From the IMG/VR virus record IMGVR_UViG_3300017917_003521: a stretch of 61,745 nucleotides of DNA; one strand, given 5' to 3'. This document shows, piece after piece, positions 5,919-42,694 of the stretch (its first letter is position 1; every line of letters begins with the position of its first letter). The notes under the pieces are model-generated. The model was given only the letters and a program-made list of their open reading frames with translations, did no database searches and was not told the origin of the DNA. The translations under genes were made by a program, and so were the position numbers. This DNA is from a virus (taxonomy: Duplodnaviria > Heunggongvirae > Uroviricota > Caudoviricetes).

Positions 5919-6107
5919 ATGAAACTCAAAGGCACAATAAAAGTTGGTAAATTCACAAGAGAAGATTCTATGAAAGCTTGTAGAAAAGCCAGTCGTGAGA
6001 TGGAGTTAGAAAACTCTGTTGGTTGGGTTGCTGTTCGTAAAGCACATAAATCTATTAAAGATTATACAAGAAAACCTAAACATAAAAAAGACTATTCATT
6101 TGAATAG
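5919..6107 (+). CDS. Small basic protein with an ArfA-like tail
   Basis: RKASRE..KAHKSIKDYTRKPKHKK; own promoter and terminator. Confidence 0.7.
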   Translation: MKLKGTIKVGKFTREDSMKACRKASREMELENSVGWVAVRKAHKSIKDYTRKPKHKKDYSFE

Positions 6108-6115
6108 TCTTTTTA
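6084..6115. terminator. Bidirectional intrinsic terminator
   Basis: AAAAAGACTATTC-ATTT-GAATAGTCTTTTT. Confidence 0.8.
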
Positions 6116-6230
6116 TTTTATATTTTCTAAGTTTCTTTTTAGAGTGTACACTTCTTAAATATTCTCCAAAATCAATTTGTTGATCAAATTGATTCCAAAA
6201 CCACTCAGTAAATTCCTTTTTATTTTTCAT
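6096..6230 (-). CDS. 44-aa protein with C-terminal tag (not in ORF track)
   Basis: [44 protein letters not shown]. Confidence 0.6.
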   Translation of the reverse strand: MKNKKEFTEWFWNQFDQQIDFGEYLRSVHSKKKLRKYKIKRLFK

Positions 6231-6453
6231 TGAAAATATTATTAATTTTCCTCATTCTTTTTCTATTGAACATAGCATCTTTACCGGTAACTTTTAGTTC
6301 TTTCCAATTACCACCATCAAATACATAGTTTCTATTTTTAGTAGAATCATAGTAAATATCACCTGTATTTGGATTAGTAGGTTTAATAGTGTTAATAGAT
6401 GTTACACTCTTCCATAAACCATTAGCGGTTAATTCAGTAATTGTCTTTATCAT
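6220..6453 (-). CDS. Small protein: tail-fibre-like beta motif plus C-terminal tag
   Basis: [26 protein letters not shown]; ends [12 protein letters not shown]. Confidence 0.65.
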
Positions 6454-7493
6454 ACTTGAAAGTTCTTAGAATTTTTAAGTTTTTCTAAAATATGTTGTTC
6501 ATCTAGTTCTATTTTCTTAGGTATTTTTATTGATATTTTAATAAATAAATCACCCATACCTAATTGAATATCTGGAATACCTCGTCCACTTATTCTGATA
6601 ACTTTACCATGTTCAGTACCTGGTTCAATTGTAATAGGAATCTCACCGTGTGGTGTGTTAACTTTTAAATTTGAACCAATAATAGCATCAATTATTGAAA
6701 TTGTTTTTTCTACTACTATATTATTACCTTCTCTTTTGAATGAGTAATCTCTTATCTCTTCAACAACAATATGTAAGTCACCAGCCACACCATTTCTAAT
6801 GTAGTTACCATAACCATTCATTGATAGTTGCATTCCGGTAGAAACACCTGCTGGTATATCAACATCGACTGTTTCTTCTTTTACATACGTTCCTTCACCT
6901 CTACAATCTTTACATTTTACATGAACTTGTTGACCTGATCCACCACAATCGGGACAAGTTGATGCTTGTCTTATTTGACCAAATGGTGTATTTTGAATAA
7001 CTGTTCTCTGTCCTGTTCCGTTACAAGGAATACAACTTCTAACATCAGTACCACCTTTACCTGAACAAGTATTACATTTATCCTGTCTCTTGTATCTTAT
7101 TTTTTTATTGGCTCCTTTTAAAATCTCATCAATTGTTAATGAAACTTTTATTCTTAAATTAGATCCTTTACTTTGTGGTCTTTGTCCATTATATCTTTGA
7201 TTAAAAGCATTTCCAAATATGTCACCAAAATTACTAAAGATATCATCCATATTAAATCCACCAAATCCACCACCTGGACCAGAAGAACCGTATCTATCAT
7301 AATTAGCCTTTTTGTCAGGTGTTGACAATATGTCATATGCCTCAGCGGCTTCTTTAAATTTAGATTCAGCCTCTGGATTGTCCGGATTTTTATCCGGATG
7401 ATATTTCATAGCCATTTTACGATAGGCTTTTTTAATTTCATCTTCAGATGCTCCTTTTTCTAATCCTAATACTTTATAATAATCTTTACTCAT
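6450..7493 (-). CDS. dnaJ: Chaperone DnaJ
   Basis: J-domain with HPD, G/F region, four CxxCxGxG repeats. Confidence 0.97.
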
Positions 7494-12802: not shown

Positions 12803-12814
12803 AAAGTATATATA

Positions 12815-27465: not shown

Positions 27466-28143
27466 CTATTTTATGTAATAAAACAGTTTAAGTTTATTAC
27501 CCCATGAAACATCAACTGTAAATTCTTCTTTAAGTATCTTACATTCCTTCATAAACTTAGATGTTATAAAGTGACACCCTTTTGACATATTACTATAAAT
27601 ATAATTTGATAGGTCGTCATCAAAACAAACATCATTCATAAAAACTATTGTTGCTACTGATAAATCAAAATTTCTAACATCTTTTTCTAAAAAGAAAACA
27701 GACTTATCACCAACATCTATTTTATTTTGAATATACTTTGAATATCTTTGCCTCTGTGGTACAATTTCAATACCAACAAAAGTTTTTATATTAGACTTTA
27801 TAGCGGTATGTAATACTAACTTACCACTACCACTGCCTATATCAACAAATAAATCTTTATCTGATATTTTTTTATACTTATTTATCTTTTCTATTATAGA
27901 ATCAACACCACTCCTTAGTATCTCACCATAAGTATAGTTGTTATTATAGTTACCTTTATATGTGAAGTGTCTATTAATATTAGTATCTCTTGCTGTAAAG
28001 TTTTCTAGTTGAAACTTTTGTTCAGGTGTATAGTTATCCCAAACACCCAACAATTCACAAATTGATTTTATACTAAAGAGATTATTTTGATATAATTGAT
28101 CAAGCTTATAATTATCTGCTAATACTTTAAGTTCATTGTCCAT
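27466..28143 (-). CDS. Class I SAM-dependent methyltransferase, DOT1-like
   Basis: YTYGE, FVDIGSGSGK, GIEI..R, ATIVFMNDVCF. Confidence 0.8.
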   Translation of the reverse strand: MDNELKVLADNYKLDQLYQNNLFSIKSICELLGVWDNYTPEQKFQLENFTARDTNINRHFTYKGNYNNNYTYGEILRSGVDSIIEKINKYKKISDKDLFVDIGSGSGKLVLHTAIKSNIKTFVGIEIVPQRQRYSKYIQNKIDVGDKSVFFLEKDVRNFDLSVATIVFMNDVCFDDDLSNYIYSNMSKGCHFITSKFMKECKILKEEFTVDVSWGNKLKLFYYIK

Positions 28144-28549
28144 ATTTTACAATTTCAATTTTAGCTTCTCTTAAAAATTCCAAACCAGATAGGTCTTTAT
28201 AATCTTCTAGATATACTAGTCTTTTTATTCCAGATTGTAATATAAGTTTAGAACAGTCTCTACAAGGTGAATGAGTTTGATATAAAGTTGCGCCTTCACA
28301 AGAATGACCGTGCTTTGCGCACTTCAAAATAGCATTTGCTTCACCGTGAATAACGTACCAGTTAGTATCACCATCAACGTTCTCACAAGAGTTATCAAAC
28401 CCTGTAGGTGTTCCATTATAACCATCTGATATAATCATACCATTTTTAACTATAAGAGCACCAACTTGTTTTCTCGTACAATGAGAAAGCTTTGCCCATT
28501 CTTTAGCCATATTTAAGTATGTTCTATCGTATCTCTCTTGTTTAGTCAT
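28133..28549 (-). CDS. dCMP deaminase
   Basis: GYNGTP, HGEANA, PCRDC. Confidence 0.93.
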   Translation of the reverse strand: MTKQERYDRTYLNMAKEWAKLSHCTRKQVGALIVKNGMIISDGYNGTPTGFDNSCENVDGDTNWYVIHGEANAILKCAKHGHSCEGATLYQTHSPCRDCSKLILQSGIKRLVYLEDYKDLSGLEFLREAKIEIVKYGQ

Positions 28550-28736
28550 TTAATATTTTTTTTATTTTAATTCTTCTAAGGTATTTTCTAAAAGATTTAC
28601 GATAGACTTTTTTATCATATATTCTACCTGAATGTGTATTATCAAATTTTTGTAAAACACCTTTTAGTATAATTTTCTCAACCATTGAATATTTTATTGA
28701 TTGAATTTTTTCTACGTTTGTTTCTATCATGTTCAA
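28542..28736 (-). CDS. Mini-protein resembling a prohead protease (gp21) N-terminal fragment plus C-terminal tag
   Basis: ILKGVLQKFDNTHSGRIYD; ends RRIKIKKILND. Confidence 0.55.
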   Translation of the reverse strand: MNMIETNVEKIQSIKYSMVEKIILKGVLQKFDNTHSGRIYDKKVYRKSFRKYLRRIKIKKILND

Positions 28737-28887
28737 ATCCCATAGATCTAAGTATATCCAAGTCTATTTGTTTACTCAAATCTTCAGACAATTTTCTAGT
28801 CATCTCATCTACAATATCAATTCCATATAGATTTTCTATTTCATATGTAGAATTGACTTCAATGCCTTTAACTTTGTGTTTCTTCAT
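28678..28887 (-). CDS. Mini-protein resembling a major capsid protein (gp23) fragment plus C-terminal tag
   Basis: YGIDIVDEMTRKLSEDLSKQIDLDIL; ends RKNSINKIFNG. Confidence 0.6.
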   Translation of the reverse strand: MKKHKVKGIEVNSTYEIENLYGIDIVDEMTRKLSEDLSKQIDLDILRSMGFEHDRNKRRKNSINKIFNG

Positions 28888-29071
28888 TGAAGATTCTCAT
28901 TATTTTTTCTTTTCTACTACTTTTTCGTAAATTATTAATAATATTAACAACAGCTTTTGAAACGACCATACAATTGCTATTACCATATCTAGAACTATTG
29001 TTTATAATAGCAGACGCTTGTAATATTTTATCTATTAACTCTTTAGACATATCTTGTGGTTTATATTCCAA
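28868..29071 (-). CDS. Mini-protein resembling a second gp23 fragment plus C-terminal tag
   Basis: LIDKILQASAIINNSSRYGNSNCMVVSKAV; RKEKIMRIF. Confidence 0.6.
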   Translation of the reverse strand: MEYKPQDMSKELIDKILQASAIINNSSRYGNSNCMVVSKAVVNIINNLRKSSRKEKIMRIFNEETQS

Positions 29072-29793
29072 TTTTTTGGTAAAAATTTACACTCATTGTT
29101 GTTAACAAAGTGTCTTCGCCATAACTGAACGAACTCTTGTAAGTTATTTATTTTACTAACAACAATCTCACCGTGTGTTTTTTTAAGAACAGTTGATTTA
29201 ATTTCTGATATTTTTTGAAGCCTAGATGTTGTTAATCTTTTTATACCAAAATAGTCTTTAATTTCTTTCTTCAATAAATTAATTCTTTTATCTGGTATAT
29301 TTGATGTGTCGCCTATAAGTGTTTTGGCTATCTTAACATATTTAACTAAGTCACTTCTAGTTTCTAACTCACCATTAATAGGAGCATTATGTATGTTAGC
29401 CAAATTAGATTTTAACTGGTCGGCTTTTCTTTCATAACTTTCATGACAATCAACACATAATGATAGAACATCATGAAAATTATGAGATTTTATCTCAAGT
29501 GGAAAGTATCTACGATAGCAATAAGGAACTACATGGTGTCTATTTAACTCATTTTTATTACCACAATTAACACATATATTTATCATCTCTGATAAACCAA
29601 ATCCCTTATTATGATTTCCTAATCCCTTTGGTTTAAATTTTAATCTAATTGTATTTTTAGATATAAATTCTGCTAAGTCTCTTTTTAAATACCAATTAAC
29701 TTTTTTTTCATCACATCTGAACATTAGTATATCATCTGGTGATACAACTTTAAAGTTTCCGTATATTGGATTTTTTGAGTATGGTGTGTTCAT
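29035..29793 (-). CDS. HNH-like protein resembling the C-terminal domain of eukaryotic EXD2
   Basis: PDD..MFRCDEKK..WYL, CVNCG, HHVVPYCYRRYFP.EIKSHNFHDVLSLCVDCH. Confidence 0.75.
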   Translation of the reverse strand: MNTPYSKNPIYGNFKVVSPDDILMFRCDEKKVNWYLKRDLAEFISKNTIRLKFKPKGLGNHNKGFGLSEMINICVNCGNKNELNRHHVVPYCYRRYFPLEIKSHNFHDVLSLCVDCHESYERKADQLKSNLANIHNAPINGELETRSDLVKYVKIAKTLIGDTSNIPDKRINLLKKEIKDYFGIKRLTTSRLQKISEIKSTVLKKTHGEIVVSKINNLQEFVQLWRRHFVNNNECKFLPKNWNINHKICLKS

Positions 29794-40468: not shown

Positions 40469-42694
40469 ATGAGACTGTTTATCCTTGTTAGTTTATTATT
40501 TTTAAACTTGTTTACTTATGCACAATTTTGTCCTTTTTTAGGACCTGATCAATTTTTACCTTGTGGTGTTTCATCAACAACACTAACAGCTGATTTAAGT
40601 CAGTGTACACCTGGTAATAATCCAAATCAAACAACAAACTACGGAGTATCATCGATACCTTATGTAGCTCAAACAAATACAGGTAATCAGCTATTCATGG
40701 GTGATGATACTCAACAAGGACCATTTCAAATTGGATTTAACTTTTGTTACTTTGGACAAACCTACACACAATTTTGGGTTGGTTCGAATGGATGGATATC
40801 TTTCTCTGGTGGACAACCTACTACATTCACATCTGCTTCTATACCCAATGCGGCTTTTAATATACCAAAAAACTGTATAATGGGACCTTGGCAAGATTGG
40901 CATCCAGGAATCGGTGGTCAAATTAGATATCAAGTTCAAGGTACAGCTCCTTGTAGAAAATTAGTTGTTAGTTGGATTAATATGCCGATGTTTGGTTGTA
41001 CTCAAACTTTAGGTACTTTTCACATCGTAATATACGAATCATCAAATTATATTGAAAATCATATTCAATCTAAACAGTTTTGTAATTGGGCTAACGGTAC
41101 AGCTGTTCAAGGAATACACAATCAAGCAGGTACTATAGGAATCACAGTTCCTGGTAGAAACTCAACTCAATGGATTGCTAATAATGATGCTTGGAGATGG
41201 ACTCCATCTGGTCCAGTTGTAACACCTACTTTAACTTGGTATCAAATTGGTAACCCAAATCCAATTGGAACTGGACAAACAATTACAGTTAATCCACCAG
41301 CCGCTGGTGCAAACTATACTTGTAGATTTGTTTACCCTACTTGTAATGCTGGTTGGTCAAGTTGTAATACCGGTCAAGGTCTAGGTCCAGATACGGTATT
41401 TGTACAACCAGGTCCTCCTAATTTAAGTCCACCTGCTGTTAATATAACTGATCCAACTTGTCATAATAGTTGTGATGGTTCTATAAATATAGTTCCAAGT
41501 AGTGGTGTAGCTCCTTTTACTATATCTTGGACTAATCCAGTATTACCATCAAATTTCACTCAAATTGGTTTATGTAGTGGTCAATATTTATTTACTCTTC
41601 AAGATGCTTTGGGTTGTAATATATCATCTTTTGCTAATTTGATAAATCCAGATATGGTTGTTATAAATTCAATTAATGGATTAGATACAATATGCGCAAA
41701 CTCAACAACCAATACATATAATGTTCTATCTAACACCAATTTTAACTATACTTGGTCAACTACACTTGGTCAAATAACAAATGGTCAGGGAACTAATCAA
41801 ATTAATCTTAGTGCTAGTGGAATAAATGGTTCAATTTATAATACCAATATATCTGTTTATGCTGACTCTGCTGGTTGTTTAAGTCAAACAGAAAATTTAA
41901 ATGTTACTATTTTAGACGTTATTCCAAGTATTGATAATTTAGGTCCTTTTTGTGAATACGATAGTTGTGTAAATTTAACGGCTCAGCCAATAGGTGGATT
42001 TTTTACAGGAAATAATTTAGTTGGAACACAATACTGTCCAAATAACGGATTTATAGGAAGCGACACTGTATTATACACATACAACCAATCTGGTTGTCAA
42101 TTTACAGATAATATAATAGTTAATGTATTTGGTAGACCTTTAATATCTGAAATTTATAATGAACTAGGTGACCAAGGTTCGCAGTTTATAGAACTTTGTA
42201 TAGGAGATAGTATTACAAATACTTATATGGTTAATCAAATTGGAAACGGTATAAACATATGGGATTTTAACAATACTCAAATAACATCACAGAATCTTCA
42301 ATCAACGTGGAATCAAACAGGTGGTTTCTACATATCAGTTGTTAACTATGAAAATGGTTGTTATTCAAATCCTCAAGACTTTTATATAAATATAGAACAA
42401 TGTCCAGAAGATATAATCTATATTCCAAATAGTTTTACACCAAATGGTGATGAATTAAATCACTACTGGCTTCCTGTTTTAAGTCAAGGAATTGATGAAT
42501 ATGATTACAATCTTGTTATATTTAATAGATGGGGTAATATTTTATTTGAGTCAAATAATCCTTTAGTTGGCTGGGATGGATATTATCAAAACTTACCTTG
42601 TCCGGTTGGTGTTTATGTTTATAGAGTTAATTATAAACTAAAAGGAACAACAATTGAAAAAATTGTTATAGGACATATAAATTTATTAAAATAA
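40469..42694 (+). CDS. Secreted adhesin-like protein with a T9SS type-B (gliding-motility-associated) C-terminal domain
   Basis: Signal peptide; SprB-like PTC...CDGSI..G.APFT..W; YIPNSFTPNGD..N, IFNRWG, GWDG, GVYVY, GHINLLK. Confidence 0.88.
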   Translation: MRLFILVSLLFLNLFTYAQFCPFLGPDQFLPCGVSSTTLTADLSQCTPGNNPNQTTNYGVSSIPYVAQTNTGNQLFMGDDTQQGPFQIGFNFCYFGQTYTQFWVGSNGWISFSGGQPTTFTSASIPNAAFNIPKNCIMGPWQDWHPGIGGQIRYQVQGTAPCRKLVVSWINMPMFGCTQTLGTFHIVIYESSNYIENHIQSKQFCNWANGTAVQGIHNQAGTIGITVPGRNSTQWIANNDAWRWTPSGPVVTPTLTWYQIGNPNPIGTGQTITVNPPAAGANYTCRFVYPTCNAGWSSCNTGQGLGPDTVFVQPGPPNLSPPAVNITDPTCHNSCDGSINIVPSSGVAPFTISWTNPVLPSNFTQIGLCSGQYLFTLQDALGCNISSFANLINPDMVVINSINGLDTICANSTTNTYNVLSNTNFNYTWSTTLGQITNGQGTNQINLSASGINGSIYNTNISVYADSAGCLSQTENLNVTILDVIPSIDNLGPFCEYDSCVNLTAQPIGGFFTGNNLVGTQYCPNNGFIGSDTVLYTYNQSGCQFTDNIIVNVFGRPLISEIYNELGDQGSQFIELCIGDSITNTYMVNQIGNGINIWDFNNTQITSQNLQSTWNQTGGFYISVVNYENGCYSNPQDFYINIEQCPEDIIYIPNSFTPNGDELNHYWLPVLSQGIDEYDYNLVIFNRWGNILFESNNPLVGWDGYYQNLPCPVGVYVYRVNYKLKGTTIEKIVIGHINLLK

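Follow-up and report, generated by a model that had tools for sequence, protein, structure and literature searches.

We report three tandem mini-genes in a 61,745-nucleotide stretch of phage DNA (hereafter the window) whose products, as judged from sequence, are tagged copies of single motifs of core head-assembly proteins, and which appear to belong to a new, clade-wide class of genes. ORF3 (60 aa, 28868..29050, minus strand) carries a copy of a helix-strand element of the capsid-protein A domain, ORF2 (69 aa, 28678..28887, minus strand) a copy of a capsid-protein strand with the short P-domain helix and the spine helix, and ORF1 (47 aa, 28542..28685, minus strand), less certainly, a copy of the N-terminal motif of the prohead protease. 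In all three ORFs this element is followed by a basic linker and a C-terminal helix tag, R/K-x-K-I-x-x-I-F/L. Neither Pfam nor PHROG has a family for these mini-proteins, and a literature search for tagged capsid fragments found no description of them.

The array lies on the minus strand between the gene of an HNH-type endonuclease (29035..29793, minus strand), directly upstream of ORF3, and that of a dCMP deaminase (28133..28549, minus strand), directly downstream of ORF1. A preliminary description of this DNA, made from the sequence alone, had proposed three tandem overlapping reading frames that each end in the tag, and all three were found where it had placed them. It had given them 64-69 aa each, which we corrected to 60, 69 and 47 aa for ORF3, ORF2 and ORF1, respectively, using ATG starts chosen from the N-termini of homologues and from database gene calls. 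Starting ORF3 at the alternative TTG at 29071 would give 67 aa, and starting ORF1 at the TTG at 28736 would give 64 aa; the latter was judged unlikely, and the database gene calls include the identical 47-aa protein (P0040). The stop/start overlaps between successive genes are 8-20 nt (16 nt between ORF3 and the HNH stop codon), and in the window and its relatives alike the ATG of each following gene lies within the last tag codons (TTCAATG or TTAAATG), that of the dCMP deaminase inside the final tag codons of ORF1. No Rfam family was matched in a scan of 27.5-30.5 kb, and open reading frames on the opposite strand over the array were not kept in relatives.

Evidence that ORF2 derives from a gp23-type capsid protein came from several comparisons. 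Its residues 15-50 (28738..28845, minus strand) align to residues 337-377 of the clade capsid protein and to residues 276-306 of T4 gp23. For this family 22 homologues were found; the Pfam Gp23 profile was matched by all 20 aligned members at positions of about 162-194 (best E 5.5e-6), hhalign of the family against the capsid-protein alignment gave P 5.7e-6, and when the family profile was compared with all PDB sequences T4 gp24 and gp23 led the list (E 0.01-0.27), followed by two weaker, unrelated entries. These results bear out the earlier suggestion that the frame at 28678-28887 resembles gp23. The window protein by itself scored 12.1 bits against PF07068 at positions 162-194, relative to a gathering score of 24.4 and a domain of 376 positions. 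The invariant residues of the family coincide with positions conserved in the Gp23 family (Y-G-x-D, L-S, I-D) and with the tag, R-R-K-N-S-I-N-K-I-F (28681..28716, minus strand), which is almost invariant across the family. An AlphaFold2 model of ORF2 comprises a weak hairpin, a long helix at residues 25-48 and a tag helix at residues 55-68, with pLDDT of about 85 in both helices; the helix at 25-48 is the predicted copy of the spine helix. A tblastn search of cultured and GenBank phages returned only the two homologues of ORF2 and weak matches in jumbo phages, two of which sit in annotated capsid genes. The search for longer relatives gave two proteins with a Gp23 domain (E 0.02-0.07) and nothing else, and hence no nearer candidate for the donor capsid protein.

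ORF3 matches a later part of the same protein, with residues 3-39 (28934..29044, minus strand) aligned to residues 419-459 of the clade capsid protein and 364-385 of T4 gp23, and a tag of the type R-K-E-K-I-x-x-I-F-N (28880..28915, minus strand). We found 13 homologues, and 17 of the 18 family members in the Pfam test matched Gp23 at profile positions of about 219-263 (best 4.6e-5). The comparison of the family with the capsid-protein alignment gave an hhalign P of 6.4e-5, and T4 gp23 was the only PDB entry returned (E 0.6-0.7), so that here too the proposed resemblance to gp23, made for the frame 28868-29071, held. Against PF07068 the window protein reached 18.6-19.9 bits at positions 219-263 (gathering score 24.4, domain of 376 positions), and tblastn found no match to it in cultured and GenBank phages. 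ORF3 also matches, weakly, the C-terminal end of the HNH-endonuclease PHROG phrog_3118 (E 0.021), and an HNH gene and an ORF3 homologue co-occur in eight relatives. In T4 the homing endonuclease gene segD adjoins gene 23. An HNH endonuclease may have picked up a capsid fragment.

For ORF1, resemblance to the N-terminus of the gp21 prohead protease had been proposed, and here the outcome was divided. Residues 2-35 (28581..28682, minus strand) align to protease residues 22-60 (about 37-70 in T4 gp21), and hhalign of the family, for which 24 homologues were found and which shares the motif I-L-K-G-V-L-Q-x-F-D ... N-G-R-I-Y, supported the resemblance at the very segment that had been named (P 2e-5, probability 77%). 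The Smith-Waterman z value against T4 gp21 was 3.5. However, Pfam Peptidase_S77 (PF03420) was matched by only 1 of the 23 members tested, and not by the window protein, and BLASTP and phmmer searches of the clade protease and of the proteome of a 635-kb relative gave no protease match; the best match to ORF1 in that relative was the tag-proximal end of another tagged protein, of 99 aa. At 47 aa in total, ORF1 is devoid of the catalytic Peptidase_S77 domain of about 200 residues, and it ends in the tag L-R-R-I-K-I-K-K-I-L (28545..28580, minus strand). Four of the 23 members matched Pfam EF-hand_7 (best E 7e-6) through the pattern F-D-x-x-x-N-G-R-I, which we read as a coincidence of pattern, the calcium-ligand positions 3 and 12 not being conserved. 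ORF1 is thus the weakest of the three resemblances, supported mainly by profile-profile comparison, and copying of the protease is suggested less certainly than copying of the capsid protein.

The profile comparisons, one of the checks that the preliminary description had named, therefore detected similarity to gp23 for ORF2 and ORF3 and, less certainly, to the gp21-type protease for ORF1. Swapped-pair hhalign controls were negative (P 0.05-0.2). After trimming of the tag, the family HMMs scored the clade capsid protein higher (20-21 bits) than T4 gp23 and gp24 (13-15 bits), and they did not match other head proteins (scaffold, gp67, gp68).

Another check was dN/dS, which we computed between the window and two close relatives. 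The values were 0.16-0.45 for ORF2, 0.40-0.60 for ORF3 and 0.34 for ORF1, compared with 0.17 for the HNH gene and 0.006-0.03 for the dCMP deaminase; at 0.16-0.6 the mini-genes do not evolve neutrally, and ORF1, ORF2 and ORF3 are conserved and under purifying selection. The capsid pieces are not colinear with their parent, as the upstream ORF3 matches the later segment of gp23, and this reversed order indicates that ORF2 and ORF3 are not the remains of one gene. We considered a pseudogene, that is, a decayed or frameshifted capsid gene, and rejected it because of the reversed order, the intact frames in diverged relatives and the dN/dS of 0.16-0.6. The initial view that this is not simply a decayed capsid gene is upheld by the same evidence and by the separate, intact frames, each with its own start, stop and tag.

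Among relatives the number of mini-genes per array varies from 1 to 4. In the uncultured phage genome LR745206 a NusG gene is followed by one mini-gene and the deaminase gene, and in LR756502 there are only the HNH gene and an ORF3 homologue; of two metagenome contigs, one has the HNH gene and then ORF3 and ORF2 homologues, with ORF1 absent, and the other has four mini-genes after the HNH gene. Both LR745206 and LR756502 have an ORF2 homologue at other locations. In three IMG/VR contigs an ORF3-like piece and its tag are fused in frame to the dCMP deaminase (L047:3714-4322, L048:3714-4322 and L049:2687-3286). The fused fragment carries an acidic form of the tag, E-R-D-K-K-L/I-N-Q-L-L, which shows that the basic and the acidic form can replace each other and that a tag can come to lie inside a protein.

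The tag itself, defined as R/K-x-x-K-I/L-x-x-I/L-F/L/I with its end no more than about 12 residues from the C-terminus, is found at the end of about 20 ORFs of the window. To obtain its statistics we used the whole genome of the 635-kb relative LR745206, where about 10% of all genes are tagged. Within the last 22 codons, 88 genes have the strict motif in the coding frame, vs. 4 and 2 for the two alternative frames, and the enrichment of the tag in the 12 residues before the C-terminus is 48-fold. Of 89 tagged genes, 16 are not followed by another gene on their strand. The frame control and these operon-end cases point to a constraint on the protein and not on the DNA, and they rule out the tag as a DNA-level or translation-initiation signal. 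In LR745206, 64% of tagged genes run into the start of the gene that follows on their strand, vs. 40% of untagged genes. About 25 internal copies of the strict motif were counted as well, often with a further domain after them, as if left by gene fusions. Pfam searches with ten other tagged proteins gave no matches. By eye, the tag (K-I-x-x-I-F-N) resembles the sequence S-K-Q-(A)-I-I/V-A-K-I-F-E, which is found at residues 28-40 of T4 gp23, in the propeptide (L052), and at the end of the spine helix of the clade capsid protein (about 365-376).

Tagged motif copies were also found outside the array. In LR745206 a minus-strand mini-gene of 83 aa (460435-460686), located directly after DnaJ, encodes four scaffold repeats and the tag, and its product matches the protease-scaffold fusion protein of the clade at E 8e-38. 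The fusion, in which the prohead protease is joined to the scaffold, has its gene upstream of that of the capsid protein in both LR756502 and LR745206 (L013:1447-3360 and L014:1522-3435, respectively); its scaffold part consists of about ten 14-residue repeats, Y-S-E-Y-L-A-E-N-L-D-K-N-I, and a tag-like E-S-K-I-N-x-L-F-N stands at the end of its protease domain, while the tag was absent from the scaffold C-terminus. The window has a tagged mini-gene on the minus strand in the corresponding place (6096-6453, directly after DnaJ at 6450-7493), whose 44-aa product resembles the scaffold repeats only weakly (E 0.004). LR745206 further encodes tagged copies of a second protease motif, of the C-terminal strands of the capsid protein (E 2e-5) and of another capsid segment (Pfam profile positions 102-163), as well as a 79-aa tagged mini-protein (83154-83393, plus strand) with motif A of DNA polymerase B (D-F-A-S-L-Y-P-S-T-Q-R), nearly identical to a fragment of the phage's own polymerase (232803-234344). 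This polymerase fragment indicates that the class is wider than capsid assembly. Most fragment mini-genes of LR745206 are not beside endonuclease genes, and several close their operon.

The window is phage DNA with a G+C content of about 29%, distantly related to LR745206 and LR756502, two uncultured "huge phage" records of 635-642 kb. Its genes include those of DnaK, DnaJ, topoisomerase II subunits, RNA ligase, a NusG-like protein and dCMP deaminase. A full-length capsid gene of 560-571 aa is present elsewhere in related genomes, with more than 345 related capsid genes in IMG/VR alone. The clade capsid protein is a distant relative of gp23, and its nearest cultured relatives are those of a Tenacibaculum phage and of Prevotella phages, from which we infer a Bacteroidota host. 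At 40469-42694 (plus strand) the window encodes a 741-aa protein with an SprB repeat and PKD-like and CHU_C type IX secretion (T9SS) domains; from its sequence, CHU_C with the accompanying domains is a predicted Bacteroidota-type secretion signal.

The late-type motif TAATATATA is enriched in the window (16 found vs. 4.4 expected; e.g., at 12809, 14999, 16126, 16228, 22075 and 44199) and is located just upstream of genes whose products have N-termini like the T4 capsid targeting sequence (CTS), M-K-H/Y-L-K-x-Y-x-x-F-E. None was found between about 24.6 and 40.3 kb, a region that includes the array, and genes with the C-terminal tag are in other operons than the genes behind TAATATATA, for example at 49-58 kb on the plus strand. 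Judged by the absence of this one motif from its region, the array is probably not expressed late. Scans for sigma-70 promoters and TAnnTTTG remained at chance level.

The mini-proteins share features with several known systems. ORF2 and ORF3 are homologous to two internal segments of the capsid proteins gp23 and gp24 of T4 (PF07068, HK97 fold; PDB 5vf3, 6uzc, 1yue). Unlike these, whose fold takes more than 500 residues, the homologous parts have 30-40 residues, score below the Pfam cut-off and cannot form this fold alone, and they carry a basic linker and a helix tag that the capsid protein does not have. In the profile-profile comparison the ORF1 family aligns to the N-terminal motif of the T4 gp21-type protease (PF03420; residues 22-60), but it has none of the catalytic domain. 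MicroProteins, known from plants and animals, are small relatives of larger proteins that retain a single element and bind competitively in a dominant-negative manner. ORF1-3 are similarly small and separately encoded, and each has one element of a parent that is still in the genome; they differ in being viral, arranged in arrays and provided with a C-terminal tag found across the proteome, and they are known here from sequence. The Gol peptide of T4, which comprises gp23 residues 93-122 and triggers the Lit protease, is also a short gp23 segment and is active on its own, but it is not a separate gene, and the mini-proteins copy other segments of gp23. Finally, the C-terminal tail of the HK97 protease and the cargo peptides of encapsulins are address labels for head cargo, which, like the tag, are short peptides common to many unrelated proteins. 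The T4 CTS is such an address label of head cargo (PMC3012670). In contrast to these labels, the tag is C-terminal and has no recognisable protease cleavage site, and the tagged genes are not preceded by a late-type promoter motif; a T4-CTS-type N-terminal signal (M-K-x-Y-x-E-F) is absent from ORF1-3.

The segments that were copied include sites known from T4 mutants. In T4 gp23 the length mutations at D285 and D287 are near the short P-domain helix and the quasi-threefold contacts, G292 and V306 are sites of gp31-chaperonin bypass in the spine helix, and N381, a site of gp24 bypass, belongs to a short helix of the A domain at the subunit interface within the capsomer (PMC9546572). D285, D287, G292 and V306 fall within the segment copied by ORF2 and N381 in that copied by ORF3, while A455, a further gp31-bypass site, is in the segment copied by a mini-protein of a relative. 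The mini-proteins thus reproduce parts of the capsid protein that control how it folds and how its subunits meet, although the overlap with the T4 mutant sites is partly expected, since the copied elements are the most conserved parts of the parents.

Our tentative reading, to which we would give somewhat less than an even chance, is that ORF1-3 are microProtein-like competitive mimics of folding or interface elements in head assembly, either the phage's own or that of a co-infecting relative. The isolated element would occupy the site to which its counterpart in the full-length protein binds, either on a capsid or protease subunit in the course of folding or assembly or on a chaperone. Such binding would slow or divert the building of heads, whether those of the phage or those of the co-infecting relative, and the tag helix would give the mini-proteins and the other tagged proteins one common partner or fate. 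In favor of mimicry we count the conservation of the families and their specific profile matches, the capsid-like invariant residues, the purifying selection, the T4 assembly and folding sites in the copied segments, the action of the tag at the protein level, the other tagged fragments of LR745206 and the lack of the late-type motif around the array. Against it, a fragment of a DNA-polymerase active site does not fit a role in assembly, and the mini-proteins diverge far faster than the capsid protein, which is 73-90% identical across the clade, a pattern that is not one of tight co-evolution.

The preliminary description had proposed decoys or baits that catch immune sensors or a competitor's capsid subunits and pass them to a partner of the tag. 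As immune decoys, the mini-proteins would precede the late proteins and occupy host sensors of conserved motifs in core phage proteins, with the tag delivering the sensor to a shared partner for sequestration or degradation. The parents found (capsid protein, protease, scaffold and DNA polymerase) and the apparently non-late operon are in line with this, and bacterial STAND/Avs receptors sense, among other phage proteins, two of those parents, capsid proteins and DNA polymerases (PMC13581612). Yet Avs receptors bind whole conserved folds through extended interfaces (PMC13581612), which an element of 30-40 aa is unlikely to reproduce; what is copied belongs to the core and the interfaces of the HK97 fold, and no fragment found so far covers the Gol region sensed by Lit (gp23 93-122). 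We consider decoys unlikely. Less probable still is that the mini-proteins are clients or baits linked to chaperones, with fragments taken from the capsid-protein elements on which chaperone dependence turns, the fragment or the tag engaging the phage DnaK/DnaJ or the host GroEL and so tuning the folding of head proteins. The window does encode DnaK and DnaJ, DnaJ is followed by the tagged mini-gene whose product is like the scaffold repeats (a clear likeness in LR745206, a weak one in the window), and the gp31-bypass sites lie in copied segments (G292 and V306 in that of ORF2, A455 in that of a relative's mini-protein), but the evidence for a chaperone link is one of synteny, ORF1-3 are not beside the chaperone genes, and the common form of the tag has an acidic residue, which is atypical of DnaK-binding peptides.

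We regard two further explanations as improbable. If the tag were a peptide targeting proteins to the capsid or scaffold, the mini-proteins would be loaded into proheads as core cargo, comparable to gp67 and gp68, small core proteins of which T4 proheads contain hundreds of copies (PMC9958956), and the tag-like sequence that closes the protease domain of the protease-scaffold fusion would fit. Head cargo is nevertheless a very doubtful role for a tag present in about 10% of all genes and absent from the scaffold C-terminus: operons with TAATATATA in front do not include the tagged genes, and the genes with T4-CTS-like N-termini behind that motif are better candidates for head cargo. Alternatively, the fragments could be by-products of mobility, moved with the HNH gene or by shuffling of cassettes at tag junctions and kept for reasons unrelated to the capsid, e.g., as translational couplers. 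The joint travel of the HNH gene and the ORF3 homologue, arrays of 1 to 4 units, the weak match of ORF3 to the HNH PHROG, the position of segD beside gene 23 in T4 and the more frequent overlap of tagged genes with the next start are what such shuffling might leave. That it accounts for the mini-genes is very unlikely in view of the invariance of the capsid-like residues across diverged homologues, the dN/dS values below 1 and the fragment mini-genes of LR745206, which are mostly away from endonuclease genes and in several cases end operons.

More broadly, it is conceivable, if rather doubtful, that huge phages of the Bacteroidota type use tagged copies of core-protein motifs, made before the late phase and acting through the tag and a reader of it, to blind host immunity or to sabotage co-infecting relatives. 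If true, such mimicry by motif copies would be a strategy of counter-defence or interference at the peptide level that has no described precedent. As mimics, the mini-proteins would make this the first virus with a labelled set of peptides copied from its own core proteins, and they would mark those elements of the HK97 fold, the protease and the polymerase that can be addressed functionally in vivo. The shared tag, for its part, implies a reader that would handle about 10% of the proteome in a widespread clade of huge phages.
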